64,000 nt of DNA from Moniliella sp. 'wahieum' (GCA_003971905.1 RSEE01000025.1:558001-622000); one strand, 5' to 3'. Shown: positions 1,903 to 58,068, counted from the first letter of the stretch. Translations and numbers: made by a program. Notes: generated by a model from the letters alone, not told the origin.

Positions 1903-2752
1903 CCGCTTTGTCTTTCCCCGGTCGCCTGCGACGGGTGGGCCGGGCTAGAGGGGTGCAAGAGAAAACCAAGAGAAACAAAACGAGAAAGAGGAAGCGGGAT
2001 GGGGATGATGGGGTACGGGCGGGGGGTGAGGAGTGTATCTTGTATCTTAGATCGATGTGCTGCATCCTCGTGGGGCTGCGCGCGCTGTGGGCGGGCAGCG
2101 TGGCGTGTAGACGGGGGGGGGCGTAACCGGTAACTTGGCTATATGCGGCGTCCGATGGCACCGAGTGTACTGATGCATGATGCATGATGCCTGGCCGACG
2201 TAATCGACGTGAGCATCAATGATTAATGAATGGTTCGATGGGAGGGCACCTGCAATTTGAAACAGAGGCAGTGTTGTGTTGGCCGCCACCTACCGCGTGC
2301 GCTCGACGCGGCCCCCCGCGGCCGATCGCCCGCGCCGGTCCGGCACGGGCGCAGTGTCGCGCCGCCTGTGCCCTGTCCGCCCGGGCACGGGGCACAGGCG
2401 CAGTGTGCGCCCGACGGCGCGGAGTGTTGGCGCATCGCTGATCCGGCCGTCCCTGACAGCGGCGGCGTGCCGCTGTGCTGGGTGCTGCGTGGGGAGGCAG
2501 CGGAGGCAGCCCCCGAGCGGCGGGGGCGCAGGGACCAGGTGGGGTGCGTGACGCATGGCGTGCGATGCATGATGCATGCATGATGCAGCGTGCATGCTGC
2601 CCGCAGCAGGCAGCGCAGCGGCGGGCAGCATTTAGCAGCAGCACCGAGCACTGCCACCCAGCACCGTCGGCGGCCGGTCGCTTGTGGCCGTACGCAGGAC
2701 TCGGTGCGCATATTCTGCCCCCCTCCGCCTCCATCGCCCCGCGCCCGCCCCC

Positions 2753-2993
2753 ATGAGCGCTGCGGACGTCATCACGCAGGTCGCGCCCGGCCAGACGGTG
2801 CTGCCGCTGGCTGTGCCCCGTCTGAATCCGCCTGCCGCTGCCGCGCCCGCGCGCTCCCTCCGCCCCCTCGGCGTCCGCCGGCGTCCCGCCGGCGCCGACC
2901 CCGTCACCGCCGCTGCCGACGCCGCCCGCGCACACTTTCTCCAGCAGCAGCGCCACGCCCGCCACGCCTTCGGCCTGCCCCCCACCCCCCCCC

Positions 2994-3046
<53 letters not shown>

Positions 3047-5059: not shown

Positions 5060-5060
5060 A

Positions 5061-5100: not shown

Positions 5101-6295
5101 TGCATTGGTTTGGTCGGTGGTCGGTGGTCGCTTGGGGGGTCCTCCGAGCCTTGTATCGCACACCCCACCACCCAACCCGCTCACCCTGCCCCCCTGCACC
5201 ACCACCCCGTGGCTTGCTTTCGGTGAGGCGGTGCCGCGCCCAGTATATATGCCTTCCTTCCTACCTGTCTACCTGCTGTGCCCATTTCCCGCATCTTCCT
5301 GTCCCTACTCTTCCCCCATGCATCCCATCCTCGGCCTTACTACTGTTTGCTGCAATTCTCGACCTCTGTCTGCATGCGTGGGAACGTTGGTACGTCTGGT
5401 TTCATGGATCATCCCCTTGTCGACCTCCCCCCTCCCGCTCCTTTGTCCCACCCTCCTGCTCCCCTCTCCTCTGTCTGTCTCGCCGTTGTGCTGCTCCTCG
5501 TGTTCTATTCTGTTCTGTTCGCCTTCGACCACTGTTGCCCATTGCTCATTGCCAATTGCCCAGTGCCCATTTCCCATTTCCCTTGACCCCCATCCTTTTT
5601 CTCTCTCTCTCCTCACTGTTCTCCTGTTGCTGCTGGTTTGCGCCTTGCCTGTGCCAACCGGGGCCGGGCGCGGAAGAGCACAGCACGCCATCGCTCCCGC
5701 CCCACTCCGCACGGTACGGTACTCACTGTGGCGTAGGACGGCCCAGCCGGATGTTCACTCCCTCCTGCTCTGTTGCAATTCACATTCTGCATCCAGCTGA
5801 CTTTGGCGGGCAAAGGGCTGACGGGGTGCCAGGTGCCAGGTGACCGGTGCCCGATGCACGGTCGGGGGTAGGAGATTTTCCCTGTACCATTGCATATACG
5901 AACTGAGATAGGCAGTGGTATAGCGTACGTTGTGCGAGAAGCGAAGATGGAGGATTGAAGCATAGTTGGCATTGGGGCCGGGGAATTGAGGACTGATGAT
6001 GCGATGCGGAGTGGACGGTGGATGGGTCGCGTGTGGAGCCACATGGGATGTGCAGGTGACGATGCATGATGTATGTATGGTGCCAGCAGGGGCCGATGGC
6101 GCGCCGTCGGGTGAGAGTCACTAGTCACACAAGACAGGTACTGAGTAGGTGGCGATGAGGCAGTGGTGTATGGCAGTACAAGGGAGGCAACTGGGAGACA
6201 AGCGCAGGGCGGTGCCCTTGGACAATTCCATTTCCCTTCCAAAGCTTCAGCTTCATCAGGAAAACCACTAGGCACTATACTCCGAAGTACACTGG

Positions 6296-6533
6296 ACTGG
6301 ATGATGAGACCTGGAGTCCTGATGGTCCTCGAGGGTGATGCAATCGCACTGGTGGTGGTGGTGGTGGTCTAAGCCAACCAGCAACGTCTACAGAGGAACA
6401 ACAAGCAGCGAGTCGCCACCAGGGGCTAACCTGCGGAACAGGGAAAAAAGGAGAGAGAAAACACGGAACTCCCAGGCCTGAGGAGGAACTGAAGGGACAT
6501 TGGCCAAAGCACGAGCCACCCGATGACTCAACA
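6296..6533 (+). repeat. Dispersed repeat family B, copy 1 (~240 bp)
   Basis: Colinear and highly similar to 63609-63847 (atgatgagacctggagtcc...gtggtggtctaagccaaccagcaacg...gaagggacattggccaaagc...ctcaaca). Confidence 0.93.
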
Positions 6534-7652
6534 TGACATACCGACCAAAGCCGGTGTGGGGCTCTCTTGTGCTCGTCTTGGTCGGCCTCGACGGCACTAT
6601 GGCGAGTAGGACGGGGGCGCTCCGGTTATTTCCTGACGCTGAACCCCGCATGTCGTAGACATCTCTCATCCAAACATGCGTTAGTTAGACTAGCGAGAGA
6701 GAACCAGCGGAAACCTTATCTACTGATGCTGCGGATATATCACATGGCCCGCCATGGTCGCATGGGCTCATCGGTACGATGCGTTGTGCCTGTCGCGCCT
6801 AGTCCTGCTGCGCCCGATCGCCCAGTGTCAGCGCCTGTGAGAGCATGGGCTGCGTATTAAGTAGTCTTCCCCTCTCTGGAAAGTTCCCCGGATCTGTTTA
6901 TACCTGTCATGAGGCACTTGAGGGCTGGTTCCTTCTGTATATAAGCAGCCATAGGTCTATAAGGCTTCCGCTGTGGTCCTTATTGACCATCCTGTCCACC
7001 TGTTACACATACCCCTTTTACAACCTTTCCATCTCTCTTCCACTTTCTACCATCCTTACGAATTTACGACTCGCGTCTCGGTTCCACTGCAAGCGGCAGT
7101 TACTCGCTCTTGCTCTTCATTAGGACTCCGTCTGATTCCGCCTACTACAGCGCGTCGAATGTGGCAACGCCCCAGGTAATCCAGGTTACCCCAGAGTTCC
7201 TGGGCCCCTTCAACAGGGCCTTTGCACGCAGGCAGCCACTCTACCTAGAGGGTGTGTCCCTCGCCTCCCCACCAGCTCGGTTGGACCAGGATCCGAGGCC
7301 TAACATACCGTACGTGGCTCCGATTGGCCGTCCAAAGCAGAACCCCTAAAAACTCCAGGGGTGGAGCCCATCTCGCGACTCCTCCATGACCTATACCCTG
7401 CTTTCAGCGCTCACTTGGAGACGGCGTGGGCAGTGGGGTGCGGTACAACCGCCAGAGCAGCGCCTGGATTCACTTGCGTTGGAGGGTTACGTGTTACGGG
7501 GCAGGTTGCTTGGGCCCATTGCTCTCGTCTCAGACTCAGAAGTCAGCAGGTTAGGTCGCCGGCTCGCCGGTGCACATGCGCTGGAGCTTGTCACATGTCA
7601 CAAGAGACAGTCACCGATCATCGATCACTAGGTCACTAGCACTACGGCAAAG

Positions 7653-13651: not shown

Positions 13652-14828
13652 CATGCGAGGTCCTCGCCAGCCTCACGCCCAACGTTCAGCGTTCCAGCTT
13701 CAAGCTTCAAGCCGGACCCGAACTGCCCGCGACTCGGTATACAACCAACACATTCATTGTGGCAGCGCTTGCCAGTCCTACTCGGGCGGGGATCCCCTGT
13801 CTCCCTTTCGTGTCTGTCCTTGTCTGTGTCCTTCCGCCTGGCTTGTATCTGCCTCAATATCTTTCTTGTCCCAAACAAAATTAATCAAAGCCACCCCTCC
13901 CTTGCCCATTTCGTCCCATCTGGCATCCATCTTTCTGTTGTGTGCCTAACCCAGCTTATATCAGCGTGCCAGCTACCCACCATCAGCACTATCCTAGTCC
14001 TTAGTAGGGGAAGAGAGCGCTGCCTTGATGCTTCGCCCGCGTCGTTCCCTGCCTCGGGCCGTAGCTCGGTTCAAGCACATGCACCATCCTGGCCGCCGTG
14101 CCGACTCGGTTTTCCAGTACGAAAACATAGCAATTACAGCGCATCAACTAGGGTCTAGCTATGCCAGTCAGACCGGGGTAGAGGGGGGGGGGGCAAATGG
14201 AGAGGGGGGACAGAGCCGGGGGGGGGGGGGGGGGGGGGGTGCAGAGAAGAATCCTTTCCGGAAGAATAAAGACCGAGACGAACAAAGTGCAGTGGAGGAG
14301 GATACGAAGAACGGTACGAGTGCGAGTGCAAAAAAAAAGAAAACCATGAAAGCAAACCATGAAACCACAAAAAACCAGAGCCAAAGCCATAGCCAAAGCC
14401 AAAGATGAAAAGCAACAACCAACCACATACACACGTCTCGTGCGTAATGCGCGTAACGCGTAAACCCAGAACCGAGGACCAAGAACCCAAAAACGAAAAC
14501 CCAGAATCCAGAATCCAGAACCGAGGCACCGTGTAAAGTGTGTGGTCGGTCCAATCCCACCGCAGTGGCAGCTGCCACGACAGTGCGGGTGGGTGAAACC
14601 AAGAACAGATATAGAACCGGGGGAGGAGGGAGGCACCAAAAGGGGGGCTCCAAAAGGAAACAAATCAGAACAACAGTTGAACGTTGACCCAAAATGGAAC
14701 CGGAACCGGGACGGAGATGGGGACGGGGCCTTTATACCCAGGGACCAGAACCACGGGACCAGAACCACAACCAACCAAATGCGTTATCGCTAGCCCTCTC
14801 AGCTCAGGGGCCGCCGCGTTCTCCCCCG

Positions 14829-18939: not shown

Positions 18940-19850
18940 GTCGGGGGGCGGCGGGGGTCCATGATGAGGAAGGAATATGGTGTGGCACTGGCCTCGCCGC
19001 GAGGGGGGGGGGGGGGGCGGTGCAGGGGGGGCTAATTAGGCGGGTGGTGGTGATGAGGGGGTAGTGGTGGTGGTGGGGGTGGCGGTGAGGGGAGGGTGAG
19101 GGTGAGGGTGAGGGTGGCGGTGGCGGTGGCGGGCAGGCGGGGCTGGGACGTGGGAGCGGAAGGGGCGGCGCAGAGCGGATGGAATACGGACGGGGCTTGG
19201 CTGGCCGCGTACGGGCTGCGGGCTGCCTGCACGGGGTGTTGGATGCTGTCTGAGACGCAGTACGCAGGCCCAGAGTGGATGTGATGCGTGACACGTGAGA
19301 TCTGAGATCCGAGATGCTGAGGCCGAGGGTGCGAGCTGCAATGTTCAAAGCATGCTGCGGGCACAGAGCGTGCGCCAGTGCGTCTGCCATGGCTGCCCCT
19401 GCAGTCCGATGGACGCAGCAGCATGCACTGCTCCTGCTCAGCCTGGGCGCTCACGCATGCGTGCATCACCCATCGCATGTCCCCCCGATACACGATAGCG
19501 CTTTATTAGTGCGTAGCAGCACGGGCCGGTGCCAGTCTCGGCCCCCAGGCCCCAGGTGCCACCAAGTGCCACCTCCTCGGCTGCCTCCGATCCACGGTGC
19601 TGCCGTGGCCAACGAGGTACCCGGTACGTATGCATGTGTTTCACCACCGAGCATACGGGGCACTGGCAGTCCTCGACATCGATCATCGATCATCACCCGG
19701 CCCAACCCGTAGAGAGTGGAGACATCAGCCAGCACCTCAATAGCCAGCCCAGCCAGCCCAGCTAGAGCAGCTGTAGCACGCTGTAGCAGCCCACAGCATG
19801 GGTGCCATGCAGCCGGCTGTATAGGGCCAGCCCACTGGATCCTGAGGCCT

Positions 19851-19906
19851 TGAAGCTTGAAGCTTGAAGCTTGAAGCTTGAAGCTTGAAGCTTGAAGCTT
19901 GAGGCC
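19851..19906 (+). repeat. (TGAAGCT)7 heptamer tract followed in register by TGA-GGCC
   Basis: Read directly. Longest homogeneous member of the TNA-palindrome family. Confidence 0.95.
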
Positions 19907-20479
19907 TGGGGCTGAGAGTGGTAAGCGCGAAGCTTCAACCGGTAACATGTAACAGGGAGCATTAGCATTTACCATGTAATACAAAGCGTGACGCGTGACG
20001 TGTGATCCCGATCAAAGCGTTCGCCGTCAGCGCGTCAGAGTTTTATAAGGTTGCCTACGTTACATTGCAACCCGCACGCTGAGGCAAGTTTTGAGCCAGC
20101 AGTGCGCTATCCTGCGCTGGGCGGGTGGCAAGTGACTAGCTTGACTGGCTACGGCCTGCTCCAGCCCGTCGCCTAAGTAGGTGACCACAGGCTGCTGCTG
20201 GGCCCGAAGCTTCCTTCCTACCGCGGGGCCGCACCCCACCAGTGTCCCGGCCCCAGTCCGCCACCAGCCACCTGCAGTGCTACATGTCACAGTGGCTAGT
20301 GATAGTGACATGCATGACATGTGACATGTGACATGTGACATGCCCATATCATGTATCATGCATCGTGTATCATATATCATGCATCATCCTGTCAGGGAGG
20401 GTGGTAGAGTGTCGCAGTGGCCTGCAAGCACATACTCTCGGCCAGATACTCACGCGTCACGCGCCACGCGTCACGATCG

Positions 20480-22520
20480 CCCATCGGCTCCTTTGGACCC
20501 TCTTTTCCGCTTCTCAGAACTCCCGTTTTGCATTTCAGGCCCGCCTTGACAGTGTCTGTGTTATCCTCTCCCCGCTTGCCGTTTCCATCTTTTTTCATAC
20601 CAGGAGACCACCGGCCCTGCGGCCCGGTCTGCTGGGGCTTCGCTCCCAGCCTGCTCGCCGCCTTAGCCACCGTTCCATCCTGTTCGCCCTCGTAGCCCCC
20701 GTTAGTAGAGTTGGGCACCTTCCGGTACGCAGCCAGCGCCTCCTGCGTTCCCGAGTTGAGCAGCGTGTGGTCTACCTCCATTCCTGATCCTCCGAGTGCT
20801 CCAGGCCCCATCACGCGGTAATCAGTGCGCATTACCTTCCTCCCACGCCTCGTCCCATCCTCCTCCTCAACAGTCGGCTCGCTGTGGATGTGGGTCGGGG
20901 ATGGACATGCTGCGCATGGAGCAGCACAACGGGCGGCTGGAGACCAAAACCTCTTAACATGCTTGTCGCTGAGCCGGAGGCACGGGGCTGATGGAATGGA
21001 GGAGCCAAGTGTGGCTGAGCGGGTTGCTGTGCTCGACCACATTGCGACCGCCGGCATCGTCCAGCTTCTGGAGCTGTCCTTGTCGGCTCTCCTTCCTCAT
21101 CTCCCGGCAGCGCTGGCGTTCCTTCGTAAATGCGTTCGCCGTCGCCGTGCGTGCATCCGAACGCGGTCATATCATAAGTGGTAATAAGATAGTCGTTGAC
21201 ATCGTTGGCCGCAGCACGCTATACATGGGGCGCGATACACGAGTACAGCGGGCTGCCGCATCCTCCCATCCGGAGAGGACAGCTCATGACGATGTCGAAG
21301 TGGCCATCCTTCATACCTTGGGGGTCCTCGTCGCTCTGGATCCGTCTGAACTCCGTGCAGATGAAGGCATCTATCTCGGCCAGCACATCGTTCAGCTGCC
21401 CCTCCCTCTCATCATTCTCCCCGCATGTCGCTGTCATGCGCTCGACCATCCGCACGATAGGCTCCACTCTGTTTTGCGATGCTACTCGCAGCTGAGTGAT
21501 GGGAGAAGCCAGCTATCGGGAGCGATCGCTCCAGTGATGCCTTTGGCACACAGGCCGTAGATCAGCTCCCCACAGGCCATGGGGCAGATACCTCCCGTGG
21601 TTGCCTTTTCTCCACGGGGGGGGTAAGGCGGGAGGCAAGCAGGAGCACACGGTCCGGAGCAGTTCCGTGGTAAATACCCTTGGTGAGGGCGGTGAGGAAG
21701 TCAACGGAGCTGTCGCATTCGAAGGCCGCACGTAGGAGGGGTTGGGTCCATCCGGATAGACTTGCCCCAACGTCGGGTCGAAATGTGGCAATCAAAGTGG
21801 CAAAGTCGATTTCGTCCAAATCCCCCTCGGCGTGGTTACTGTCCGTCGCACCGGCGTGGTTACTGTCCGTCGCATCGGCGGGGGTGGTGCCAGGCGGTAC
21901 CACGCGGCCTGTATGGGAAGATAGTGCGGCCGGTGGTGTTGCCCAAGGCTGTGCCCGAACCGAGTTGAATGGGTTCGCATCTCCAACAGGATGGAGCTTT
22001 TCGAGGCTTGTCTGGGTCTCTAGAGTGAGTGGGGCAATGGTGGATAAGCCGGCGAGGGTACTTGCTGCGCGGCTGAGGCAGCCCTCTCCCAGTTAAGTTG
22101 GTTGTGGTCTTGGAGACTGAGTCGGGGGATCCGCGTGTTGAAGGTCTATTCGGTATGCATATCCTTGGCAGCTTGAGGCTGGGACAAAGAAACGCTGAGC
22201 CTAAACCGAGCCGTTCCTCCGGCATGTTGTGTGGTATTATAGTACTACTACCGCCTGTACTTTTGTCCTTTATGGGTCGCAGTGGAGAGCAGGTACTGCG
22301 GACAGGTCGGGACTGGCCTAGTGCTTCTTTCCTGGCTGGCACAGCTGGGTCTACACCGAGTAGATGCGGTTCTACGTGCTCTGATGCGAAGCGATGCTTA
22401 CCAAAACATCCCCCAGCGACTAACTCCGCAGACACGCACGGGGACGGTACTTGTGAGGGTCTGGTGATGTCCCCAGCACCCCACACCTTGCCCCGGCTGG
22501 CCTGCTCCGAAGCTGTCGTC
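20480..22520 (-). mobile_element. Internally deleted CRE-clade (Cnl1/MoTeR-like) non-LTR retrotransposon remnant, copy A
   Basis: Minus-strand motifs in order: GEGCLSRAASTL...LEKLHP, SRLTP, TGGICPMACGELIY, QLRVASQNRVEPIVR, PLRMGGCG, LRLSDKHV, HSEP...RTDYRVMGPGA...EVDHT (restriction-like endonuclease start). No RT palm. Confidence 0.8.
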
Positions 22521-23773: not shown

Positions 23774-24215
23774 GGTAAGTGGGGTGTGTGTTGACAGCGG
23801 TGGCGGGAGACGAGGAGGCCGGGATGAACCCACCAAGGAGAGGTCAGTGCACGCCCACCGGCCACCGCTGACCACTGCGTCGCCGCCTCAGCCTCAGCTT
23901 TGGCGGGTTCAGGACTAATTCTTAGCTAAGGACGTAGATGAAATAAGCGCACCTATTCGTGCCAGCTCGCACTTATAACCAGCTGCGCTTGGTTTCAATT
24001 GCAACCGCACGCGCTGTCCTGCGTCTTTCCAGCTTTCAAATGGCAAAATGGCCTACGCGCTACGAGCAAAGGCTCAGATTTTTGAACGTTAGAGTTCATT
24101 GTTCATTGGCCTGCTGCACTTTGATTTTCTCGCCCAAAGCATCCCCACCCTGCACCTTCTCAACCACGCTGGCTGGCTCCCGCGCCCCGTCTTGAAGCTC
24201 GAGCTCAGAGGTCCA

Positions 24216-25988: not shown

Positions 25989-26589
25989 ATCGGGTCCAAA
26001 ACGCTCGTCAAAACCATCCAGGCCGGGGAACACTATATCTGCCCGCTTATATGTATGACATCTGAGAAGCATGCCACGGCACATGCATCGATTATGATCA
26101 CTCTCTGCCTTCAAGCCAGCTGTGTTACTCTGATTATCGATTATGCCCACTCAGTACTCATCGATCATCTGGATTGCTTGTAGCCTAATCAGTGTGCTAC
26201 TATGGGTAGCGCAGCTTGAGGCCCGCGGTACTTCTTGAAATGCTGTGGATGTGAAGATGGATGAATGTGAATCGGGCCCGATGATACTAGAGAATGCGGA
26301 TACGATACGGACTCGTAACCTCATGAACACGATGGTTGACACGAATGGTTGGCACGAATGGTTGGAGACGCTGAAGGTTGGGGTTGGTGCTCAGGCTGAG
26401 TTGAGAGCTGAGAAGATGAACTTCAACTGGCATGCATAAAAGCTTTTAATCGTGGTGAAGTGGTGAAAGCCTCATCTCGACCTTAGAAAATAGGATCCAT
26501 GCGTTAGGTAATCAACACGATGATACGTTAATCGTGCTGGAGCTGTCAGCAGCTGATCCCGTACGCCTCTGTCCTTTTCATCCACCATC

Positions 26590-29014: not shown

Positions 29015-29049
29015 TGCATCTGTTCCTGGCCCCCATGGGAGATAGGCGG

Positions 29050-30352: not shown

Positions 30353-30689
30353 TGTCCGTCAAGGCAGACCGTTAGGGACGTTGGTGGTGGTGACGCTCCA
30401 GGAGGCGTAGCCACGATTGGGATTTGCAGTTGTCGCGGGTTCCACATGAGCGTGAGCTTGAACATTTAAGCAATGGGCGCCCTCCCTGAGGTCCTGAGGG
30501 GCCTGAGTAACTTAGTCACAGTGACTAGTGACAAGTGACTAGTGACTAGTAAGACCTAAGGAGTTCATGGTGCGGCGCAACAGGCATCATCCATCGTCCA
30601 CCATTCACCGGTCACCATGCATCACGCAGGCTTCACGCTATCGCTTCTCTCGTAAGCGCGTAAGCCCAGGGACATTCAGGTGGTTTATA

Positions 30690-35925: not shown

Positions 35926-38132
35926 GGTCGTGGCTGTGTATATATGAGAGGGTCAACCGTGTTATGCTTTCTCTCACTATACCAAGAGTGTGGAGAGTAC
36001 TGTGATGCATGATACCACGGGAGGGTACCTGCTGTGCGTAGGGAGACGGGCCACCGGGTGTGGATGTTCTTTTGCGTTGTGTCTTATGTGTGCGGTGTCA
36101 AACATAACGGCATACTGCAGCGGCCATTCATACATGCAGTGATTAGGGAGAGAGTGTGGGCGCGTTAAGTCGATGATCGAGGTGCTTTGCAACGTCCGGG
36201 CTGTACACACACTGGTGACCCACACAATCTCATTACCATAATCTGCACTACTACTAACAACAGAAGAACATATTGTTGGAATCATATAAGAGGCCTTCAT
36301 TTGAAGAATTTGATGGGGGAAACTTGAAAAGCGTAAAGCTACTTCCCCAATGCTTGTGCGCAATGCTTGCGCATGGGAGCGATGAGCTGTGCTCCACTCA
36401 CTTCACACTCACCCTCTCAAGCTCACTACTATAGTCTTCGCTGCGGAAAATAAGTTTCTGCAATATGGGTGTAGTTCTCACCACTGCGTTGTACGTTCAA
36501 TATACTCTTACTGCATACTAGTACTAGTAGTACTGATGCAATGATGACTCCTCGGACTATATTGCTGCGGCCGCGGGAGGTCCTGGCAGATATATCATGC
36601 TTTAAGCTTTACAGACGGAGCATTGTGGGGGTTTGTGACATATTAACGTTTAACCCCTACATATAATAGAACCGTCCCCCACTTGCCCCGGGTTCATGTA
36701 CTAGTATACGTATAACAGTGCGGGGGGCCGTGTGTTCGCCTGTGGGTGGTCTAGATATTGGCGCCGTTTTATTATATGTCACGGGGGGCCACAAGGGGTT
36801 GTTAAAAGGTTATATTTTGTGTGAGAGCCAACAGAGCAAGCGATTGATTCGATTAATGCTGTGTTGAGTACCAAAGATCGGAGGGGATGTGGCAAGCGTA
36901 TAGAGAGAGACCACTGCACACACCTCTTCAGTACTACTAGTATACCTGTGGTGATGACAAAAGATCTCTACGAGGTCGTATTATAGGGGTCACTGTACCG
37001 GTCACACCCCAGCACACGCACGGACCATTTGGGTTATGTGGGTATTATAATCCTGTCTCTGTGGTACAGGTACAGCCACACCGTCTACCACCGCCTGGGT
37101 ATACTACGTACCTCCTGCCACAGTCCCTAGCACTTTAATTCCTGTGCCCTCGCCGCAAGCTTTATACTGAGAGTTGGCAAAAATATGAGCAACGCTTATT
37201 TCTACGCTGCGAAGAGAGAGTGAATACTATTATATGACTTTTTTGGTGGACAGCGCTACCTTTGAATTTGTCGCCTGTTGCTGGTAAGTGTCGTTCCGGT
37301 ATCGATGGTCATCGGAATCAGATGACCCCGACTGATAGAAAAAGCTATATAGGTGGCTAATTCCGAGCACTTCCAGAACAAAGTATATCGAGTTTTGTAT
37401 AGTAGAACAGTTGCGAAGAGAGAAGAGACAAAGGAAGAAATGGGGTGCGGGGGGGCGAGTTCAGAGGGGAGCGCAATGGAAGGTGCATGTATGTGGGAAA
37501 GGCAGGTTTCTATAGTGCCAACGGCTCTGCGGAGGGACTAACCAGGGAAGTCACATCTTCATAACATACGTCACAACACTGCGGTACGGCATGGTATGTA
37601 TGCAGTTCGACACACCAGCGCCTGTCATAATATAAGACTCACAGAAATAAAGGAATCTTTTATTGCTGTTCCCCAGGACAGGAGAAGACTAGCGACGAGC
37701 AAGAAGGCGCGGAGAGAACGGGGCACTCCCCCAATACCACAGTTGATCAACAGCGGGGCTGCGTCTACCGACGAATCTGCCATCGACATCTCTACGCAAA
37801 TGAAATATGAGACCTGAGGCCGGTGAGGGTAGTATATGCACCTACATGATCACGTCGATCGCACGCGCCGTCAAGAACAGTGTTGTTGCCCCGTGTATTA
37901 TGCGGTGTGCATATCACGAAATATAGTCATCTCGAACTCATCATCGACATTAGAGTTATTTTGGAAAAAGAAAGGCAACACCGGTTGTTCTACCCCCATG
38001 ATCGGCATGATCGCGAGAATTGTGGTTTAATAAGGGATCACGATTGTCAATCTCTTGTGGGGGAAGGGAGAATCGTGCTTGAGGTAAAGACAGGAGACTC
38101 GAGCAGACTCATATAATACCAGTGATATATGT

Positions 38133-40385: not shown

Positions 40386-41112
40386 TTTGAATCGCCATGC
40401 CTCCAACGAGCGGCATTTCCTCCTGTCTCTCGCATCGGTGAGGGCGAAGAGCGCCTCGTTTTCGTCAGCATCTCAAGTCTTGCTCTGCCCATGTGCTCAG
40501 CGCTCATGCATCATGGACCCCTTCGTCTCATCCAAGGAGAAGCAAGGCGCGTGTATAGTCCGTACCAGTGAGACCTAGCACACGCAGTGCCGCGGTGGAT
40601 ACTCGTGCCTGACATCTCTGGGACGAAGTGCCGAGGGAAAGAGCTGTTGCCCCGCCATATGACTATCACACTGTAGCGAAACACAGGGGGCTACTGCTTG
40701 ATATGCATGATACGTAGCAGCAAGTGGCTCAGCGGGGACCTACCGGTTAAAAGCCTTTGTACCGCGTATTTCCTACTACTGGCTACGGCAGCCCTACTAG
40801 TAGGGCGAGACGAACCTCCGGCCTTTGTCACTTCCGTGGAGCTTTCGAGCACGTTTTGCGGCCCCCAAACACCTGCGATTGCGCTCGCGCGGCAAGTGTG
40901 TGTGCTGGACTCGACTGTGGCCCGGTGCTCTACGGCATACTGAAAACGCTCGGTCCTCGAGAAGAGAGTGAGCAATGAGACTGGAGGGATACTGAGTACT
41001 GACCGATGACCGATGATCGAAGTGCGACCCTTTGGCCCCTTTCCGGTGCCATCAGCGCCATCAGCCACATCTCCGAACGGCCTGATCGGCCTCATCGCAC
41101 AGGCATTTTTCT

Positions 41113-41121: not shown

Positions 41122-43824
41122 CATCGATGAAACTCGAAATGAATAATTGATTGACTGCGAGAAATACATCCACCACCCACTCTCTCTACCGGGGTCTCAG
41201 ATCCCAGGCAACAACAACCACAGCCAGGAGCGAGCATGTGGGAGACCTGAGAGGAGCCATGCGTTCCAGCCTGTTCCAGCTGGTTGAATCAGCAGCAACG
41301 CCAAAACCTTCTCGATCATCGATCAGACTCAAGCTTCAAGCTATAGCTTCAAGCTTCAAGATGATGGAACTCATGTAAATGAGGCACTGAGGCCTGTGCC
41401 TGAAGGGCAACTGGTACTTCTATAGTTTAGAATCAAGCGCTTGAAGCACACTTTGGGTTTTGGTGGATATACTGGCCCCGGCCGCCATACGCACACCTCT
41501 GATTTTGAGTTGGCGGCTGCCGCACTCTCAGCCGATATGGCGAACAGAGCCCAAAATCCTTCCCTCTTTTTGACACGGCCTTCGCGGCTGCCTTGTTCGC
41601 AGTGCTCAGCACAGGACTCCATACGCAATACGGTTAAACATTGAACGTTGTACAAGGCTGTTTTCATCTGAAAAGGTCGGGGTGGTTTTCGTGCATTGTG
41701 TACAGTAGCATGTGACACGTGTGACACACCCCGCGTAATAGGTATCTCCGCAGATGTTCGCATGATGCATGATGCATGATGCATGGTGGATGCTCGATGC
41801 CTCAAACGGGGCAAGAGGGTTGGTCATTTAATATTTATCCCTTCCCTCTCGAAGAGCTTGAAGCTTGACTAATTAATGATTCACGATCTGACGGGTGGAG
41901 AAAGAGATCCCATCAGTGCATCAGTACTCAATTAATAATGTACTCAGTTTTCGTGCACTGCCGCAAGCTCTCATGGAACTGTATAGGCCTGTGGGGCCAG
42001 GCATTCGCCTCTCGTCTGCACGCGTGGTCTACGCACACACTCGCTTCCTCGTCGGACGGCACTCACATCAAACTACTGGGCTGCCACTGCAGTCATTTAT
42101 CGACAAAAAGATTCAAGCTCTTCAAGCTCTTCAAGCTCTTCAAGCTCTTCAAGCACCATGCATCATGCATCAAGCTTCAAGGCAACAAGTCTTGCATATC
42201 TGATGTCACCGGTCACCGGTCAGCCGCTCACCTGTCAATGTCACACGTCACGGGAAAATATAATAGGCCGCAATGGGGCTGTACCATATATGTGCAAGCT
42301 GTGTCGAGTATCGATATATCGATCACCCACTCTGGATGCAAAAGGCACAAGGAGCACGGAGCGTACTGCGTAAGGCTTACGGCGTAAGCGTGTAAGGCCT
42401 AAGGCCTAAGGCCTCAGCCTGAGGCCTGATGCCGGCTTGGGGGGCCAGAAAAGGCCAGCCTAAGGCCCGCGTTACGCTAAAGGGGGTCTGAGACGGTGAG
42501 CGTCTCCCTGGGCCTGAGCTTGAGGGCCGGATGCACTGATGCCTGACGAGTACGATGAGTACCTCGTACAGGGATGTGGGTGGTGCTGCACACTGAGGCT
42601 CAGTCCTGAGGTAGTGAGTAATAATGCTTCGTGCTTAGTACTTACACTTATTTACCGGCTGAGGCGCTGATCCATTGACATTGAATATTGATGTATGATG
42701 CATGATGCATGATGTGCCGATGCCCTCACGGAATCATTAATCACATCAGCGTTGGTGAAACATGCCAAGCCCTCGCACCTGGCCACACGCAACGCGCCAC
42801 CCACTCGGGACAACTGTAGGCGGGGAGGCGGTGGCCAAAATTTCTGGTATCTGATTTGCGATATTTATAGGCCACAAGCCGGCGGTCACCGCTCACCCGT
42901 CAAGCTCAACCTTCTTCAAGCTCCAAGCTCCAAGCTTCAAGCTCCAAGCACCAAGCTCATCAAGCTTCAAGCTTCATGCATCATGAAAGGACGCTTCAAA
43001 TCTTATAGATCTTTTAGATCTTAGACCTTACCGGCCGTCTGGTCATTTGACCTTTGACCGGTGACAGGGACTAGGGACTAGTATTACTGCGAGCGTTTGT
43101 TACAGTATGCACCTTGCCTTTTCTGGTCGTTAGGCGCGCCAACAGCGCCTATATCCCTCTTCCTTCTGTTCCTTTTCTTCCCTCTTCACCATACTGCATT
43201 CGTTCTACTTCTCACCCATGTGTGTTGGCCGAACCACCTGCCGCGATGCCGAGAGAACATGCCGTCTCTGCCGGTCAGAATGCACAGGTTCCAACGGTAC
43301 CTTTTTACCCCCCCCACTTCTAGCTGTATGATGCCCTGTGAAGACAACCCCCTCTCCACCTATGGGTCTTGGCGAAAGGATTACGGATAGTCGATGACGC
43401 GCCGCCGACGGAAACTGAGTCCAGAGCTGGCCTGACGCTCTGGGGACCCACCGTTGCTTTGGCGCCGTCACTATATGTTCACACGTTCGGACTGTTGTGC
43501 CTGGGCCTGACCAAAAAAACATATGTCTTCAACGTAGGACAGACTGTCGTGCCTGAAAAAAAACCCTGTCAGATGCCCACTCCTTTCCCTCGACCACACA
43601 TCTTCCTTAGCCGGGCCCGATGAGAACCGGCAGCAACAATAATGGCATGCACCGGTCACCGGTTATGCTGCGTTCCAGAAAACGTGTTGGGGCTGAACGT
43701 GCCGAACCCGAAAACACCAAGTTTCTTCGTGCCTGTGAGGTGGCCCCTCTTCGCCTCCGTTAGGGCATCTTCGGAAGGCGCCCCTAGAAACATAACCCTC
43801 CTTCCTGCTAGATCGCGTCCATTT

Positions 43825-44355
43825 CATTGACAGAGCTTAAGGCTGGGACAGGGGGAACGCTACGTCTAAACCTAACCGTTCATCTTGCGGCTAGATTGTA
43901 TTGGATGGCTGGAACGGTCTCGGTCGGAACATAATACGCGTTTCGTGCTGAATCGCGCCACCGATAACTGGGATAGGGGGAAGCATTCAGAAACACGCGC
44001 TGCGGGGAACCGGTTTGTCTCCTTAAGTTCCCTCAGACTCAGGTTGATTCGACTTGATTCTCTTGGTTCTCGTGTACAACACCACTAAAGTCGTTCTGGT
44101 CCAGCGGGTGTTGTTGCTCAGTCCGACGGGAAAACGTACGCGTGAAGAACGGTTGGGGAATGAGTACTGAGTGGATAGTGTTGAACGGACACAGTCCCGC
44201 AACCTAAACTGCTGCGGGGCGAGGACGGGTGCAAACTCGGGAAAACCTATTACGGTTGAATGGAAGTCCTTACCGATATGATGCCATATCATTGACAGAG
44301 GTTAAGGCGGGGACAAGGAAACGCTCTACGCCTAAACCGACCCGTTCATCTTGCG
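43825..44355. repeat. Repeat family C: ~65-bp unit at 43825-43889 and 44290-44355 (also 22158-22222)
   Basis: cattgacagag.ttaaggc.gggaca...aacgc...ctaaacc...ccgttcatcttgcg is shared between copies. Confidence 0.85.
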
Positions 44356-44439: not shown

Positions 44440-45110
44440 CGTTCCCATACCCGACGTAGCGCATGTGGACACGGATAACGTGGTAGACATCCGAGCGAGG
44501 AACCATTTCCATTGAGACTCAGTAGCCAAATTCTTCCAATGGGCAAACATCTTGCCCGCTGTCTTGGTGCCGCAGTATCCTCGCGTCGTCAAAACCAGGG
44601 GGAAAAACGGCTCTTGGGTGCGTCCCTGGTACTGGGAGTTCTTGTCGCATTCTGCTTGTTCAAGCAGCCGAAGCAACTCCTTCTCCCGGCGTTCCATTCC
44701 AGGGGCCCCGTCGCTGTGCTCTCATGCACCACCCTCCGGTACGCGCTCTGCGCCTCATGCGTTCCCGTGTCGCGCAGCGTGTGGTCGACCTCCATTCCGG
44801 TTCCTCCCAGTGCTCCAGGCCCCATCACGCGGTAGTCGGTGCGCCTAGCCCTCCGTCCGCGCCTCGTCCCAGCCTCTTCCTCCACAGCCAGTGGTTCCTT
44901 GCGGACGTGGGTGTCGGGGATGGAGCGTATACTCTCTTTTATAGTAGTTCCAACCATTTTCTCTACCCTATCGGAGTCAAACTATGTAAGCCCTCCCTTG
45001 AATGTGAGGTGAGGCGAGGCGTGGCAAATTCCGAGTCGACTGTACGGGAGGCATGTATCTAGTGTGGCCAGCATGTGTTGACTGGAGGATGTGTGGCCTA
45101 TTCAGTGCAA
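44440..45110 (-). mobile_element. 3' fragment of CRE-clade retrotransposon (restriction-like endonuclease domain), copy C
   Basis: SIPDTHVRKEP...RRTDYRVMGPGALGGTGMEVDHT...DKNSQYQGRTQEPFFPLVLTTRG...FLARMS. Nucleotide similarity to 20720-20900. Confidence 0.82.
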
Positions 45111-45115
45111 TGGGG

Positions 45116-46345: not shown

Positions 46346-46987
46346 GCTGGGGCGAGCGGATGCGCAGATGCTCTGATGACTGAGGCTCAGTCGTGCGGGT
46401 ACTGATCGTGTCCGGGTCCGGGCGGAGGTTTGGGCCCCCGCGCTGCGGGTCGCGCGACTATCACATCACACACGCCGTGCCGTGGCGGGGCTCCGCGGGT
46501 GGTCCTGTTGGTGGGTGTACTAGTTGGCGGATACCGGCTGGACTGATTAGATCAGCAATGAAATCTTTGTCAGGGGGCGCTGGTCTCCCATCTGCTTGGG
46601 CCAGCTCGCAGCCAAACACCGAATCGCAACCAAGTGGGCGCACATTTGGCGGAACAGAGCGGAACCACCGTTTGAAATTGCTCCCGCAAACTTCGTGGGC
46701 GACGCACACTGCCCCTGGGCCGGCGCCTGGGTGACCGGTGACACGCCGTGACACCACTTGCATCCTAATCTTGGACCCCGTCCGCGCTGAGACTCCGATT
46801 CAGTACCACTCAGCGCCGCCCAGCTTTTCTCCGCCTTTCTCTGCCGCGCTGGCCTCGCGGTTTTAACTGCGTCTTCTAGCACACTGCCTTGGCCATCTCC
46901 ATCACCAGCAGCCTTCTTCCCTTCCCTTCCCCTTCCCATTCTCCCTCCCGCTCCCCTCCCACTCCCACTCCCACTCTCGCCACAACC

Positions 46988-50205: not shown

Positions 50206-51403
50206 CCTGCTTGTCGAGGAGGGTTGGGAGGAGGCGACGTTGGGAGGGGGGTGTGGGGGGGTGTGGGTGGATGGGGGGTGGGGATGGGGGATGGGGGATG
50301 CAGGACGGGTGGTGGGTGGTGGGTGACTGGCGGGTTCCACGCCGGAGCCGACGGGCTGCGATCGGCGGTGGCCCTCCCGCATCACGCGTCGGGTGTCACG
50401 CGTGTCAAGTGTCACGCGACACACGCCACGCCGCAAGCTGGCACAGCAAACAAACGCGGACGGCACACAGGCGCCGTGCGATGCTCTCGGGCGCACCCGC
50501 CGCAGGTGTTGTGGAGCGCGGGGGCACAGCGCCAGTGTGGATGTGCGGGCTGCGAGCCACCGGGGATGCAATATGCAGCAGCGAGGGGTTGAAAGTTGAA
50601 AGTGCAGACGCCTGCCTAGTGGCTGGCCGCCACGTGGGTACTGCTGCGGTGCGGGGCGGGCGATGTGGGATGGCGGTGGCGGCGTGTGCGCTTAAGCCGT
50701 AAGCGCGTAAGCTAGCAGCTTAAGCGGCGCGTCCTGCTCCGCTCCGCAGCCCGCACGGAGGCACAGCGATGCGGGGCGCAGGTTGGCTGTCGGCTGCGTC
50801 GGCTGTTGAATATGAATATGAATGCTCAATTTCAACTTATCATCGCAGCGCCTGGGCGGCGCAGCGCTGGGCGCTCGCTGCAGCTCGCTCTGGGTTCCTG
50901 AGCAGAGGCCCAACCACACCAGGTGCAACCTCACTCCATCGCCGCTTCCCTGTCCTCTTCGGTCTGTCCCACGTGTGCCTGAGCCGAACCATGCAACTTG
51001 TCTAGATCTAGATAATGATAGCCAGTTGCCAGATCAGTGCGCTCGGCGCACGGTGGAAAAGTGGATATGAATACGATGATTGAGATGGATGTGGCCTTGG
51101 CATCTGCACAACACCAAAGCCCACAATTGGACCCGGAAGATACGCACAGTGATCGTACCAGACAGACAGATACTCCTGCTGCACACCTCTGCTTAGGAGC
51201 AAGCCACCCCGCCACAATCAACGAGGCCACAGGATAGCAGCACCCGACATGCGATGTTTACCCCACCTCTCAGCCCGAGAGCGGCGCAGCGGAATGGAGC
51301 GGAACGAGCGCACGGCCCCCCCGCGCGCGCAGCACCTGGCAACTGCCGCTGGCCAGCCTTGGGTCCGCCCGCAGGCAGCCGAGCGACTTGGCGCGCCACC
51401 GCC

Positions 51404-55152: not shown

Positions 55153-56584
55153 TATGTGGCATCGAAAGGACAGGGGAGAAGGAGCCGGAGGGTGGAGGGT
55201 GGAGGCACGAAGACGAAAGCAGGCAAGGGGAGCGAAGGAGAGAGAGGAGAGATATGGGCGTCTGTTGCCGTCCAAAGGGTCCTTTTGTCCAACCGGTACC
55301 TACGGTCTGGGGACAGCTGCAGCCGGTGTTTTATCTCACAAACCCATCAGCAAGGCTTTGGTGCCCTGGTGTGCGTCTCTCGGTCGCACGCCGCCAAAGA
55401 GCCTATCAAGCGTGGGGCTCCTGCGCCAATGCGTCAGCGTCGTCAATATGATGCGGCGTGGGGGGGTAGGCAGGTGACGCACCGTTAGGCCCAGGTGGGG
55501 CAGGGGTATTGCCGGATGAAGCAGCGGTAGGCACATGCTCATCATTGACATCAAATTGATCTAGCCGAAAGGTACACCGCTCGGATCCATTTTCAGCCCT
55601 GCAAATAACGCAACCGTAGCGAAACTAGTGCTTTAAGCTTTACGCTTGATTAGGCGGCTGGTACTTAGTACTTAGTAGGCCAGTCTGCCCCAAGTGTATA
55701 CGTACGTCAAGACGATGAGACGCAAGACAGATATATTTCCTACCCCGCAACGCCGAAAACGCCGCCATCTCCGACTACTGCAAATCCCAGGGGGACGTTG
55801 ATCATGATCGGTGAGTTGTCTTCAGCACACCACCGCCGCTGTCATGCCAACATCCTCCATTCTTCCATTCCATCCCGGTATCAAGTCCCCTCACAGTATA
55901 CGACCTTCATTCCTTGGGTTTTCCTTCCGCATGTAGAGGGGAAGCGCGCGCAGGAGGGCCCGAGTACTACTATAAAAAAGTATGCCTCTACTTGCCAGGT
56001 CCCGACGGCCTTGGCCCTTCGTTCTTATCACTCTGGTACGTCCAGAACGTGCTGGCAACCCACGCTCACATCCAGGCTGCACGGATTCTAGCGTGCGCCA
56101 TCTAGGCTTCCGCGTGGTTGAGATAGGATATGGTGGTGGTATGGTCGATGGAAGTGATCAGCAAACAGCACGGTTGTCGCGGGGAACCATGTGCACCTCC
56201 GCGGGAGGTACAAGGGGGTGGTCAACGAGGTTAACCGTTGAGTCCTGGTGTACTTGACGATTGGGTTGGCCGTTGCCGACGGCCGAGTACAAGTGGTGTT
56301 GCCTCTGCCACGTGGGTGTCGAGACACCAGGACCAGGTTGTCCATCTGCAGCAAAGGTGGTGAACGTCGTGTGGTGGGTGAATGTGGTGAACGTAACACA
56401 AGGGGAAACAATTCAAACCTCGTGACATGTGACACGCGGCATGTGACGTCGTGACGCGTGACGTGCGGTGTGTGATCCACGATGCCAATTCCGCTGCTTT
56501 CGGCTTTCTGCGTACCACCCCGACATGCCATTCCGCCGCGTCGCAAGTCCCTTCTAACCACCATCGCAGCTGGACCGGTTGAGA

Positions 56585-57261
56585 ATGAGCGAGACGACGG
56601 CCGTGGCACCCACGCCACAAACAGTGCTCTACTGTCAAGTGTGCACCTTCCCCCCCGAGTACTGTGAGTTTGGAAACAGTGTGAGCAAGTGTCGTGCTTG
56701 GCTCGAGGAGGCCCACCCCGATGCCTACTCTGCCTTGTGGGGGGAACAGGCCACGGCGGCCAAGCTGGCTTCCATGAGCACCAAGGCGGCGGAAGAGCTG
56801 GAGAAGGACAGCGCCAAGAAAGAGCGCAAGGCGGAAGCCAAGGCCGAGCGGGAGCGTGCGCAAAAGGCACAAAACAAGATCATTGTTTCTCGTACTGCGC
56901 GGACCAAGAAAAGGTGATTACCACCATTGAGGGGCTGCACGTCTTCACTCCGCCTCTGCCGGCTCTCAAGGTTATCTCCAAAGGGTATGTATCGTTTGCT
57001 TCGGCGCGCTCTCTGGCTAGTGCCTGATCTGTGGGAGGTGGACTAACCTGTTTCCCTGGACACAGCCTTTCCTCCCGCTTTGCCACGGGGGCCTCGATCT
57101 CCAAGTCTGCCAAGAACCCGGCAGTAGAGGAAATTGTGGTGCAGGGCGATGTGGCGGACCAGGTGCGGGATTTGATTATCGCACGGCAAAAGCCGTTCGA
57201 CCAGCTCCCGCCCGAGAGTGCAGGTGGGCCGGCGGAGAATGCGATCGCCATCAACCGCTAG
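56585..57261 (+). CDS. TMA22: Density-regulated protein DENR / translation machinery-associated 22 (SUI1 domain)
   Basis: VLYCQVCTFPPEYCEFG...CRAWL...HP, RFATGAS, EIVVQGDV. Intron 56985-57065. Confidence 0.95.
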
Positions 57262-58068
57262 GCTAAGCGGCACGGTGTCGATTTCAGCGTCGATTGCTGG
57301 CTGCTGCGCGTTGACGTTCTGGGGGAATGAATCATCTCGTCTGTGGGTATATGAGGTGTGAGGTGGAGGCTCAACTTGGGCCGCATGCTTTAGATGACAG
57401 GGAGAGGGGGGCTGGCTGGGCTGGTTGAGCTACTAGGCAGCGCGGGATGCGCAGCGCAAGGCTGATTGGACATAGAGCGGCCAGAGGGAAGGGAAGGGCA
57501 GCTGGTGCAGAATAGGTTCTCTCAGCGCCTGGCAGCCCCCGAGGTGGGTGTGGCAAGGGTGGCATGTTGCTGCAGCACCTCATTCCGCAGGCTAGCTTGG
57601 GGGGGGGGGGGGGGGGGGCTCGTGGGTGTCCTTCCGCTTCCGGATGCGAACGGCGGCGGCGGAGGCAGTGGAGCGCCAGTGGGAAGGCGCACACAAGGCC
57701 GCGAATAAGCGCGGGGGCGGCCCAGCGCGGCGCGAAGATGAAGATGGCCTGGTGAGCACACACGGCGTAGCACGCACTGGGTACTGACTAAGGGGGGCCG
57801 CCGTCGGCCAGCCCCACCTGCTCGCCATCCCCACAGGCTCGCTTGCCAGCCCAGCCACGAATATGAATCGTCGCAGCGTCCCCCGGCGCACCGCACGTGA
57901 ACATCCCCCCGTCACGCGTCACCCGTCACACTCAGCCACGCCGCCCAAACGTCCGCGTTATCCGCTGGCCGCGGCGGCCCCAGCATCCATCCCGCGCTCC
58001 ACCACCTTCCCCACCCAGACCACCTCGTCCACACGGGGGCCTGCCTTGGCCACACCGGTACAGAGGCC

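Follow-up and report, generated by a model that had tools for sequence, protein, structure and literature searches.

A flank-templated +7-bp mutational signature at TNA sites in a 64-kb stretch of the Moniliella sp. 'wahieum' genome

What kind of process repeatedly places a short perfect palindrome between two copies of the same trinucleotide? This question was raised by a 64,000-nucleotide (nt) stretch of DNA from Moniliella sp. 'wahieum' (RSEE01000025.1:558001-622000), which we refer to as the window and whose coordinates are used throughout. In tracts scattered along the window, a TNA trinucleotide recurs every 7 bp, with the same base N in each copy, and the 4-nt core between the copies is a palindrome. 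A prediction made earlier from the sequence of this stretch (the original prediction) held that symmetry, and not a particular sequence, is conserved in the tracts and that a recurrent +7-bp insertion process acts at TNA sites. Here, we examined how strong and how specific the pattern is, where the palindromes come from, and which known or conceivable process fits them best.

The window contained 122 sites at which two TNA copies with the same N were separated by 4 nt, and the spacer was palindromic in 74 of these sites (61%, versus a naive expectation of 6.25%). The background was set by simulating the window 100 times with a third-order Markov model; the number of palindromic sites was then 1.7 ± 1.3 and never exceeded 5. 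The 74 sites merged into 55 tracts, or about one tract per kb, and all 21 positions cited in the original prediction proved to be tract starts. All but two of the tracts, those at 2124 and 61549, fell within the span given in that prediction (2167 to 57930). Same-N TNA pairs were over-represented at the 4-nt spacing (122 versus 26 expected) and at the double spacing of 11 nt (68 versus 27), and smaller excesses were seen at the 3- and 6-nt spacings. The palindrome effect was restricted to spacers of 4 nt; spacers of 2, 6, and 8 nt were palindromic in 6 of 17, 2 of 52, and 1 of 37 cases, respectively, which is no enrichment.

The effect was also restricted to TNA. Among the 16 pNq flank classes, only TNA showed enrichment (74 of 122, versus 0 to 9% in the 15 others), and no enrichment for palindromes was detected in the window for the complementary-pair classes GNC, CNG, and ANT. 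Palindromic cores had mixed-N flanks at 6 sites versus 74 sites with the same N, and the core was palindromic in just 2 of the 21 sites with inverted TNA..TN'A flanks. Thus, direct flanks dominated, and the earlier comparison of the flanks to a target duplication was borne out. Fifteen of the 16 possible 4-bp palindromes were present as cores. The missing core, AATT, had no occurrence with same-N flanks, and the predicted TCA-AATT-TGA was confirmed at 48147. With both strands folded, N was G in 38%, C in 38%, A in 12%, and T in 12% of the tracts; this usage equaled that of the TNA triplets in the window (894 TGA, 830 TCA, 311 TTA, and 297 TAA), which indicated that N was unconstrained. All four flanks named in the original prediction were in use, although TGA and TCA, like TAA and TTA, represent the same sites on opposite strands. 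The idea that the tracts are symmetric promoter binding sites maintained by selection would be in line with their location, which was mostly between genes. However, 15 cores and any N, in proportion to the background, fit no single binding protein. The diversity of cores and the TNA-only enrichment likewise argued against a single satellite and were in agreement with a recurrent +7-bp insertion process at TNA. We concluded that the TNA/palindrome pattern is genuine and constitutes a mutational signature that is both strong and specific.

For comparison, we used 121 metagenome loci (705 kb) that were retrieved with a three-unit array motif. In the DNA outside the seed arrays, which amounted to 679 kb of unrelated sequence, the spacer was palindromic at 38 of 732 sites (5.2%). 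None of the 121 loci displayed the dense pattern with many cores; most had a lone array with a single core. One metagenome contig (L091; 1,308 bp, 36% G+C) contained a 624-bp piece in which TCA recurred every 7 bp at positions 160 to 340, with TCGA, CTAG, and TTAA as palindromic cores next to others that were not palindromic. A comparable TNA pattern may therefore occur in an unrelated, low-GC organism.

The origin of the palindromes became apparent when the cores were compared with the DNA on either side. We denoted a site as ab-TNA-core-TNA-cd, with a', b', c', and d' as the complements of the flanking bases. The last half of the core repeated the 2 nt to the left of the tract (ab) in 33 of the 55 tracts, and its first half repeated the 2 nt to the right (cd) in 26. 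A match on either side was observed in 47 tracts (binomial p = 4e-35 at a 12% chance rate, about 6% per side); 12 tracts matched on both sides, 35 on exactly one side, and 8 on neither side. When the halves of the core were swapped as a control, 14 of the 55 tracts matched, and 10 of these had cores with identical halves. When the flanks were shifted outward by 2 nt, matches remained in 8 tracts on the left and 3 on the right. The length of the flank match peaked at exactly 2 nt (18 tracts on the left and 16 on the right), which pointed to a real boundary two bases outside the TNA. On the unmatched side, flank agreement was at the chance level. The left and right types were equally common, independent of whether N was G or C, as would be expected of a symmetric two-ended reaction. 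The tracts that fit both flanks and were not composite (n = 9) mostly ran on into a further, decayed unit.

Thus, the typical event converted ab-TNA-cd into ab-TNA-b'a'ab-TNA-cd or ab-TNA-cdd'c'-TNA-cd. In other words, the 7 added bases consisted of five bases that were directly copied and the reverse complement of two. This templating of the palindrome by the flank is the key new fact beyond the original prediction. It also extended to the five composite tracts, in which different cores stand side by side (20370, 26151, 40497, 42163, and 42960). In three of the five (26151, 40497, and 42163), each core fit its own outer flank, and in the other two, one core did. Adjacent cores in the composites differed at symmetric pairs of positions or at all four positions; hence, they could not be derived from each other by single mutations. 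This finding indicates that the composites arose from successive independent events at TNA copies made by an earlier event. The 55 tracts are listed below with the flank that agrees with the core half.

2124-2133: TAA-CCGG-TAA, one unit; neither flank, one mismatch on each side
2171-2187: TGA-TGCA/TGCA-TGA, two units; right flank
2220-2229: TGA-TTAA-TGA; left flank
6118-6127: TCA-CTAG-TCA; left flank
7404-7413: TCA-GCGC-TCA; neither flank
7591-7600: TCA-CATG-TCA; both flanks, exact double copy of TGTCACA
7618-7627: TCA-TCGA-TCA; left flank
13700-13709: TCA-AGCT-TCA; both flanks, within an open frame of 1,641 nt
14454-14463: TAA-CGCG-TAA; left flank
14678-14687: TGA-ACGT-TGA; left flank
19296-19305: TGA-GATC-TGA; right flank
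19683-19692: TCA-TCGA-TCA; both flanks
19851-19902: TGA-(AGCT)x7-TGA, the longest array; left flank CT fits, right flank does not
19943-19952: TAA-CATG-TAA; right flank
19989-19998: TGA-CGCG-TGA; both flanks
20315-20338: TGA-(CATG)x3-TGA; right flank
20370-20386: composite TCA-TATA/TGCA-TCA; TATA fits its outer flank, TGCA does not
20450-20459: TCA-CGCG-TCA; right flank
26134-26143: TTA-TCGA-TTA; left flank
26151-26167: composite TCA-GTAC/TCGA-TCA; each core fits its own outer flank
27841-27850: TCA-TGCA-TCA; neither flank
30522-30531: TGA-CTAG-TGA; left flank
30536-30545: TGA-CTAG-TGA; both flanks
30605-30614: TCA-CCGG-TCA; right flank
36003-36012: TGA-TGCA-TGA; neither flank
36602-36611: TTA-AGCT-TTA; left flank
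36643-36652: TTA-ACGT-TTA; right flank
40497-40513: composite TCA-GCGC/TGCA-TCA; each core fits its own outer flank
40993-41002: TGA-GTAC-TGA; left flank
41316-41325: TCA-TCGA-TCA; left flank
41329-41338: TCA-AGCT-TCA; right flank
41349-41358: TCA-AGCT-TCA; both flanks
41763-41779: TGA-(TGCA)x2-TGA; both flanks
41828-41837: TTA-ATAT-TTA; left flank
41859-41868: TGA-AGCT-TGA; left flank
41921-41930: TCA-GTAC-TCA; neither flank
42163-42179: composite TCA-TGCA/AGCT-TCA; each core fits its own outer flank
42206-42222: TCA-(CCGG)x2-TCA; neither flank
42393-42409: TAA-(GGCC)x2-TAA; right flank
42420-42429: TGA-GGCC-TGA; left flank
42635-42644: TTA-GTAC-TTA; neither flank
42682-42691: TGA-ATAT-TGA; left flank
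42696-42712: TGA-(TGCA)x2-TGA; right flank
42734-42743: TCA-TTAA-TCA; left flank
42960-42983: composite TCA-AGCT/AGCT/TGCA-TCA; TGCA fits its outer flank, the AGCT side does not
43014-43023: TTA-GATC-TTA; right flank
43055-43064: TGA-CCGG-TGA; neither flank
44161-44170: TGA-GTAC-TGA; right flank
46732-46741: TGA-CCGG-TGA; left flank
55633-55642: TTA-AGCT-TTA; left flank
55665-55674: TTA-GTAC-TTA; both flanks
56423-56432: TGA-CATG-TGA; right flank
56452-56461: TGA-CGCG-TGA; both flanks
57912-57921: TCA-CGCG-TCA; left flank
61549-61558: TTA-ACGT-TTA; left flank

The flank rule bears directly on three other explanations. The first is that the tracts are heptanucleotide microsatellites produced by slippage of self-complementary, hairpin-forming 7-mers. 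Arrays of up to seven units (19851) are what slippage would produce, and units carrying a mutation were copied in turn at 41000 (TGACCGA) and 42917 (CAAGCTC), which indicated that slippage does act. However, slippage copies existing sequence and cannot make the reverse complement of a flanking dinucleotide in a single-unit tract; in the 35 of the 55 tracts that matched on one side only, that strand offered nothing from which half of the core could have been copied. Moreover, adjacent units carried unrelated perfect palindromes, and self-complementary GNC, CNG, and ANT units were not enriched. Thus, slippage was contradicted as the origin of the tracts and is likely to be a secondary source of array lengthening. 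As an account of the tracts themselves, slippage or selected binding sites had, in our estimation, only a small chance of being correct.

The second explanation invokes PIF/Harbinger- or Tc1-style elements, whose footprints would consist of a 3-bp TNA duplication around a core made of the last 2 nt of each terminal inverted repeat (TIR). The outward form is indeed the same (a target-site duplication, XY..Y'X', and a second target-site duplication), and canonical Harbinger elements make 3-bp duplications according to the portion of PMC12730594 that was consulted. Nevertheless, the core followed the local flank in 47 of the 55 tracts, which is impossible for element ends, and 15 cores would require about 15 families. 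The window contained no TIR element flanked by TNA, and the rarer products described below showed that more than TNA had been duplicated. In addition, the consulted text of PMC4561436 describes mPing excision sites as being repaired precisely through the target duplication. The combination of a 3-bp duplication and element ends was therefore rejected as contradicted by the flank rule, and we considered such footprints to be a very slim prospect, slimmer still than slippage or binding sites.

The third explanation, an error of assembly or base calling, received almost no weight. The 55 tracts were dispersed, short, and diverse, followed a flank-dependent rule, avoided open reading frames (ORFs) with Pfam matches, and occurred mostly where open frames were short. 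To our knowledge, no known artifact writes the complement of neighboring bases.

Next to the canonical tracts, the window held a set of rarer products that were informative about the length of the duplicated target. Exact tandem copies in the window comprised 47 7-mers, 3 8-mers, 7 9-mers, and 1 10-mer. Thirty-two of the 47 exact 7-bp copies belonged to the TNA pattern, and 15 were without TNA. Four of the copies were plain, non-palindromic abTNAcd-abTNAcd duplications; TNA was exactly central in the two that had a fixed register, and the other two were compatible with a central TNA. To classify the remaining products, the spacer between same-N TNA copies was split into a prefix of cdd'c' and a suffix of b'a'ab, and the class was named by the two lengths (L and R). 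The canonical classes comprised 40 and 47 sites versus an expectation of 0.5. Products of +8 bp, in which one more base of the trimmed copy was kept, were found at four loci (expectation, 0.04 per class), and products of +9 bp, which consist of a full copy, 2 complementary nt, and a second full copy, were also found at four loci (expectation, 0.01). A +11-bp product that kept both palindromes was found at one locus (expectation, <0.001). The plain copies and variant products were as follows.

20347-20360: plain tandem copy, TATCATG twice; TCA exactly central, junction non-palindromic
24094-24107: plain tandem copy, GTTCATT twice; TCA central
43046-43059: plain tandem copy, TTTGACC twice; TGA exactly central
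50588-50601: plain tandem copy, GTTGAAA twice; TGA central
20027-20037: +8 variant TCA-G-CGCG-TCA, class L1R4; the extra G is the first base to the right of the site
30653-30663: +8 variant TAA-GCGCG-TAA, classes L1R4 and L4R1; flanks CG and GC
41913-41923: +8 variant TCA-G-TGCA-TCA, class L1R4; the extra G is the first base to the right of the site
50700-50710: +8 variant TAA-GCGCG-TAA inside an 8-bp array; flanks CG and GC
27931-27942: +9 variant AG-TAA-AG+CT+AG-TAA-AG, class L4R2; full copy, 2 complementary nt, full copy
28029-28040: +9 variant AG-TCA-TC+GA+AG-TCA-TC, which equals an exact 9-bp tandem copy, AAGTCATCG twice (28026-28043); in-frame, in an ORF with an N-terminal Tpt1 match
41052-41063: +9 variant CA-TCA-GC+GC+CA-TCA-GC; also readable as a 9-bp tandem copy
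42112-42154: 9-bp array, 4.8 copies of TTCAAGCTC, a +9 unit in which CT-TCA-AG plus CT is repeated
2570-2583: +11 variant TGA-TGCA-TGCA-TGA, class L4R4; both predicted palindromic overhangs kept, flanks CA and TG

The excess of tandem 7-mers, the plain abTNAcd copies, and the +8, +9, and +11 products made 7 bp (nnTNAnn) the most likely length of the duplicated target, ahead of 5 bp or the bare 3-bp TNA. A duplicated target that includes the TNA would explain why both copies have the same N. Because the sequence at three of the four +9 loci also fits a plain 9-bp tandem copy, the +9 class is supportive and not decisive. The 15-mer CG-TAA-GCGCG-TAA-GC occurred at two distant loci (30653-30663 and 50700-50710), and GCGTAA-type units were present at 14445-14463; the shared 15-mer could be a coincidence at similar targets or a genuine motif.

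Three further candidate schemes were rejected. A 5-bp duplication with 2 palindromic (P) nucleotides would need an asymmetric target, the P nucleotides that it predicts at the TNA end were absent, and it does not predict the +8 and +9 products. The classic hAT target is 8 bp (nTnnnnAn), and an 8-bp hAT-style duplication with a hairpin offset by 1 nt predicts a complementary N or a free first T. Inverted-flank sites were palindromic in 2 of 21 cases, and mismatches at the first T were not in excess, as opposed to these predictions. Finally, microhomology alone as the reason for the T..A pair was inconsistent with the lack of enrichment of GNC, CNG, and ANT.

A staggered-target duplication together with nucleotides complementary to the ends is the product expected of an insertion that is followed by hairpin-type excision. 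On balance, we therefore judged it probable that the tracts are excision scars of a hairpin-forming cut-and-paste transposon with a 7-bp nnTNAnn target, which visited and then left about one site per kb. Two features of footprints were observed directly. First, two target copies remain, as seen in the identical-N TNA copies at 7 bp, the plain double copies of abTNAcd, and the +8, +9, and +11 products. Second, P-nucleotide junctions were present in 47 of the 55 tracts, and swapping the core halves lowered this number to 14. The enrichment, the restriction to TNA, the shared N, the flank-derived palindromes, the rarer products, and the clustering of the tracts can be read from the sequence itself; the element, its hairpins, and their repair are what we infer from these observations.

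The putative pathway would begin with integration at a 7-nt staggered cut centered on T-N-A, such that abTNAcd is duplicated on both sides of the element. At excision, the transposase would leave closed hairpins on both flanking ends, exactly at the element boundary. Nicks 2 nt from the hairpin tips would then leave each end with a self-complementary overhang (cdd'c' for the left end, b'a'ab for the right); since T pairs with A, a nick 3 nt from the tip would be indistinguishable. If one overhang is retained and the other trimmed back during end joining, the net gain would be 7 bp. Because a scar holds two TNA sites, it could be visited again and gain further units, whose core may or may not be the same, and slippage may lengthen the resulting arrays. 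In a variant of the joining step, both 6-nt overhangs would anneal via their terminal A·T and T·A pairs, and the 4-nt mismatch would be resolved either way. Such annealing would account for the uniform length and the 33:26 balance of left and right types and is indistinguishable here from trimming, but on its own it would leave the TNA specificity unexplained because GNC, CNG, and ANT were not enriched. Scars in coding DNA would shift the reading frame and be lost, which would result in accumulation between genes.

A number of results weigh against this transposon reading. A Pfam search of the window, which covered 266 open frames of at least 110 amino acids, yielded no transposase domain and, specifically, no match to the dimerization and related domains of hAT transposases. 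A search of the window for TIR elements flanked by TNA yielded none, with two weak, chance-like matches, and a search for TIR elements flanked by a 7-bp nnTNAnn duplication returned only the arrays themselves. The sole dispersed repeat of the window is about 240 bp (6296-6533 and 63609-63847; 89 to 94% identical) and contains a (TGG)n run. Its second copy has 34-nt inverted arms (63622-63655 and 63849-63882) that are 193 nt apart and give it the look of a miniature inverted-repeat transposable element, but neither a TNA nor a 7-bp target duplication was found at the ends of the repeat. At 55 in 64 kb, the tracts are very dense for footprints, and typical end-joining scars are far less uniform than these junctions, of which about 87 sites are canonical and only a few are variants; deletions and precise repair were invisible to this junction search. 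Scars with both overhangs trimmed (TNATNA) were not enriched in the window (48 versus 43). The eight tracts that fit neither flank (seven of them one mismatch off on at least one side), two inner cores of composite tracts that the flank rule leaves unexplained, and the ambiguity of the +9 loci must be added to this list. In Hermes-type hAT elements, the first nick is placed one base into the flank, which gives junctions that are odd in length or complement-swapped. Odd palindromes were rare here; a single cd-X-d'c' junction was found, at 56444, and even 4-nt palindromes dominated. Finally, we know of no described element with an nnTNAnn target.

Because the density and uniformity of the tracts are unusual for end-joining scars, an enzyme that acts without an element, or one that was domesticated, remains a serious rival, though an unlikely one in our assessment. 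In such an element-free pathway, a domesticated transposase, another TNA-directed nuclease, or an unusual repair or template-switch pathway would make the +7 product; that is, DNA would be broken at TNA, 7 nt would be duplicated, and 2 complementary nt would be added. The lack of an element or a transposase in the window speaks in favor of this pathway, and the very high density, uniform junctions, and young look of the tracts would suit a dedicated, constantly acting enzyme; the free N and the weak flank preference also count in its favor. On the other hand, no one-step path of a nuclease or a polymerase could be built that gives both a duplication and hairpin-type complementary nucleotides. 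For a fold-back at T-N-A, the loop would be limited to a single base, and getting back to the template would call for homology that the flanks lack. Moreover, the content of a 64-kb window is a poor guide to whether a low-copy element exists in the rest of the genome.

None of the 55 tracts lay within an ORF that gave a Pfam match. The open frame around the tracts had a median length of 333 nt versus 651 nt for all positions, and open frames of at least 600 nt held 11 of the 55 tracts versus 54% of all positions. The local G+C content at the tracts was 0.544 versus 0.590. Tracts were found upstream as well as downstream of genes. The intergenic placement in the original prediction thus received indirect support, from ORFs rather than gene models. 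The tracts were also clustered, with 8 at 19.3 to 20.5 kb and 20 at 40.5 to 43.1 kb; together, these two clusters take up about 6% of the window but hold 28 of the 55 tracts. Local hopping would fit such clustering.

The age of the tracts was estimated from sites with one departure from the pattern. The excess over background was about 72 for perfect sites (74 versus 1.6) and about 38 for one-departure sites (80 versus 41.8 ± 7.2). Since the two would be equal if the process were old and steady, it seemed that most scars are young or that the process is ongoing.

Period-7 arrays without TNA were also noted in the window, namely, 6.9 copies of TTGCCCA at 5535-5582, 8.6 copies of AACCCAG at 14463-14522, 2.9 copies of TGGTCGG at 5111-5130, and 3.9 copies of GGTGCCA at 5825-5851. 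The 15 exact 7-bp tandem copies without TNA still exceeded the 3 exact 8-bp copies. Such arrays could stem from the same process acting away from its consensus, or from ordinary slippage.

The window is eukaryotic DNA with a G+C content of about 59%. Among its genes are those for an NIF-type phosphatase, MFS transporters, a hybrid histidine kinase, a Ras GTPase, Tpt1, a tricalbin, PTPLA, an aspartate-semialdehyde dehydrogenase, an OHCU decarboxylase, DENR, and a protein kinase. The best named relatives of the aspartate-semialdehyde dehydrogenase were from Tilletia (77%), Tilletiaria (75%), Jaminaea (75%), and Malassezia (74%), and those of Tpt1 were from Exobasidium, Ceraceosorus, and Sympodiomycopsis (36 to 45%); further proteins reached 91% and 64%. 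On the basis of these two protein comparisons, the host was placed as a smut-related basidiomycete near the Exobasidiomycetes and other Ustilaginomycotina, a group that includes bunt and smut pathogens and skin yeasts; the collection searched contained no named species closely related to it. Other features of the window were a tRNA gene at 61768-61868 on the minus strand (Rfam, 51.8 bits), apparently with an intron, for which ARAGORN reported none; poly-G runs in non-coding DNA at 14218-14239 (22 nt), 19003-19017 (15 nt), and 57599-57618 (20 nt); and a 158-nt direct repeat with 84% identity (20716-20873 and 44730-44887), which is possibly paralogous coding sequence.

If the transposon reading is true, thousands of past visits by a transposon that is nearly or wholly absent locally are recorded in a handful of short scars, and these scars reveal its target (nnTNAnn), its chemistry (flank hairpins and 2-nt P nucleotides), and the repair choice of the host from sequence alone. 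Transposon excision, and not slippage, would then seed most 7-bp microsatellites and many intergenic palindromes in this fungus, which would bear on promoter evolution, marker design, and models of mutation spectra. The one-sided flank rule provides a simple and portable test for any genome. A bolder proposal is that a TNA-directed break-and-hairpin process, driven by a restless hit-and-run transposon with an undescribed target or by an element-free or domesticated enzyme, writes flank-templated +7 palindromes across all non-coding DNA at a rate similar to that of point mutation and is the main source of heptanucleotide repeats and promoter palindromes. We regarded this proposal as doubtful; a process that operated across all non-coding DNA would constitute a new mutational signature.

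The original prediction also recognized no described system with this signature. This held for the element, as no described element with such a target was found, but it did not hold for the chemistry, which matches hairpin-type excision footprints with P nucleotides. The TNA palindrome pattern was not found described in Creative Commons-licensed PMC papers and bioRxiv, array strings included, with subscription journals outside the scope of this search.

Several known systems resemble the tracts in part. The Tc1 footprint has the form TA-CATG-TA. Like the tracts, Tc1/mariner footprints show a direct target duplication around a short inner palindrome; however, their palindrome consists of the inverted ends of the element and is constant per family, whereas that of the tracts is set by the local flank. 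Relatives of IS5 and PIF/Harbinger prefer a T-N-A or TWA target. PIF/Harbinger (Tourist) elements and IS5 thus share the target with the tracts, but their duplication is 3 bp (PMC12730594, consulted portion), and the duplication inferred here extends 2 nt further on each side; the precise repair of mPing sites (PMC4561436, consulted portion) likewise differs from the +7 scars.

In V(D)J recombination, Artemis opens hairpins 2 nt from the tip, and the 4-nt overhang typically gives 2 P nucleotides. The junctions of V(D)J coding joints, like those of the tracts, contain nucleotides that are reverse-complementary to the end bases. In contrast to the tracts, V(D)J joints have no target duplication and involve a different organism and enzyme, and in the tracts, only one end adds its overhang, exactly 2 nt being lost from the other.

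The consulted part of PMC12730594 reports hAT7 and Kyakuja elements with 7-bp target duplications in Basidiomycota. These elements correspond to the favored transposon reading in that they are basidiomycete cut-and-paste elements with 7-bp duplications, and hAT7 belongs to a hairpin-forming superfamily. They differ in that the same part of that source describes them in Pucciniomycotina and Agaricomycotina, not in Ustilaginomycotina, and reports no target consensus or footprints for them; no hAT7 or Kyakuja element was found in the window.

The closest chemistry is that of hAT, Transib, RAG1, and the MULE Muta1, which form flank hairpins that are opened by host enzymes before end joining leaves footprints (PMC5499845, consulted portion); Ac/Ds footprints support the hairpin model (PMC2921059, consulted portion). 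Like the tracts, Ac/Ds, hAT, MULE, and Transib footprints retain two target copies and have flank-complementary nucleotides at the junction. The palindromes of the tracts are even, so a hairpin would form exactly at the boundary. Unlike Ac/Ds-type footprints, the tracts have a 7-bp duplication centered on TNA, show one dominant product instead of a spectrum, number about one per kb, and grow into arrays. The chemistry itself has thus already been described, and what is unusual about the tracts is their density, their uniformity, and their seeding of heptamer arrays.

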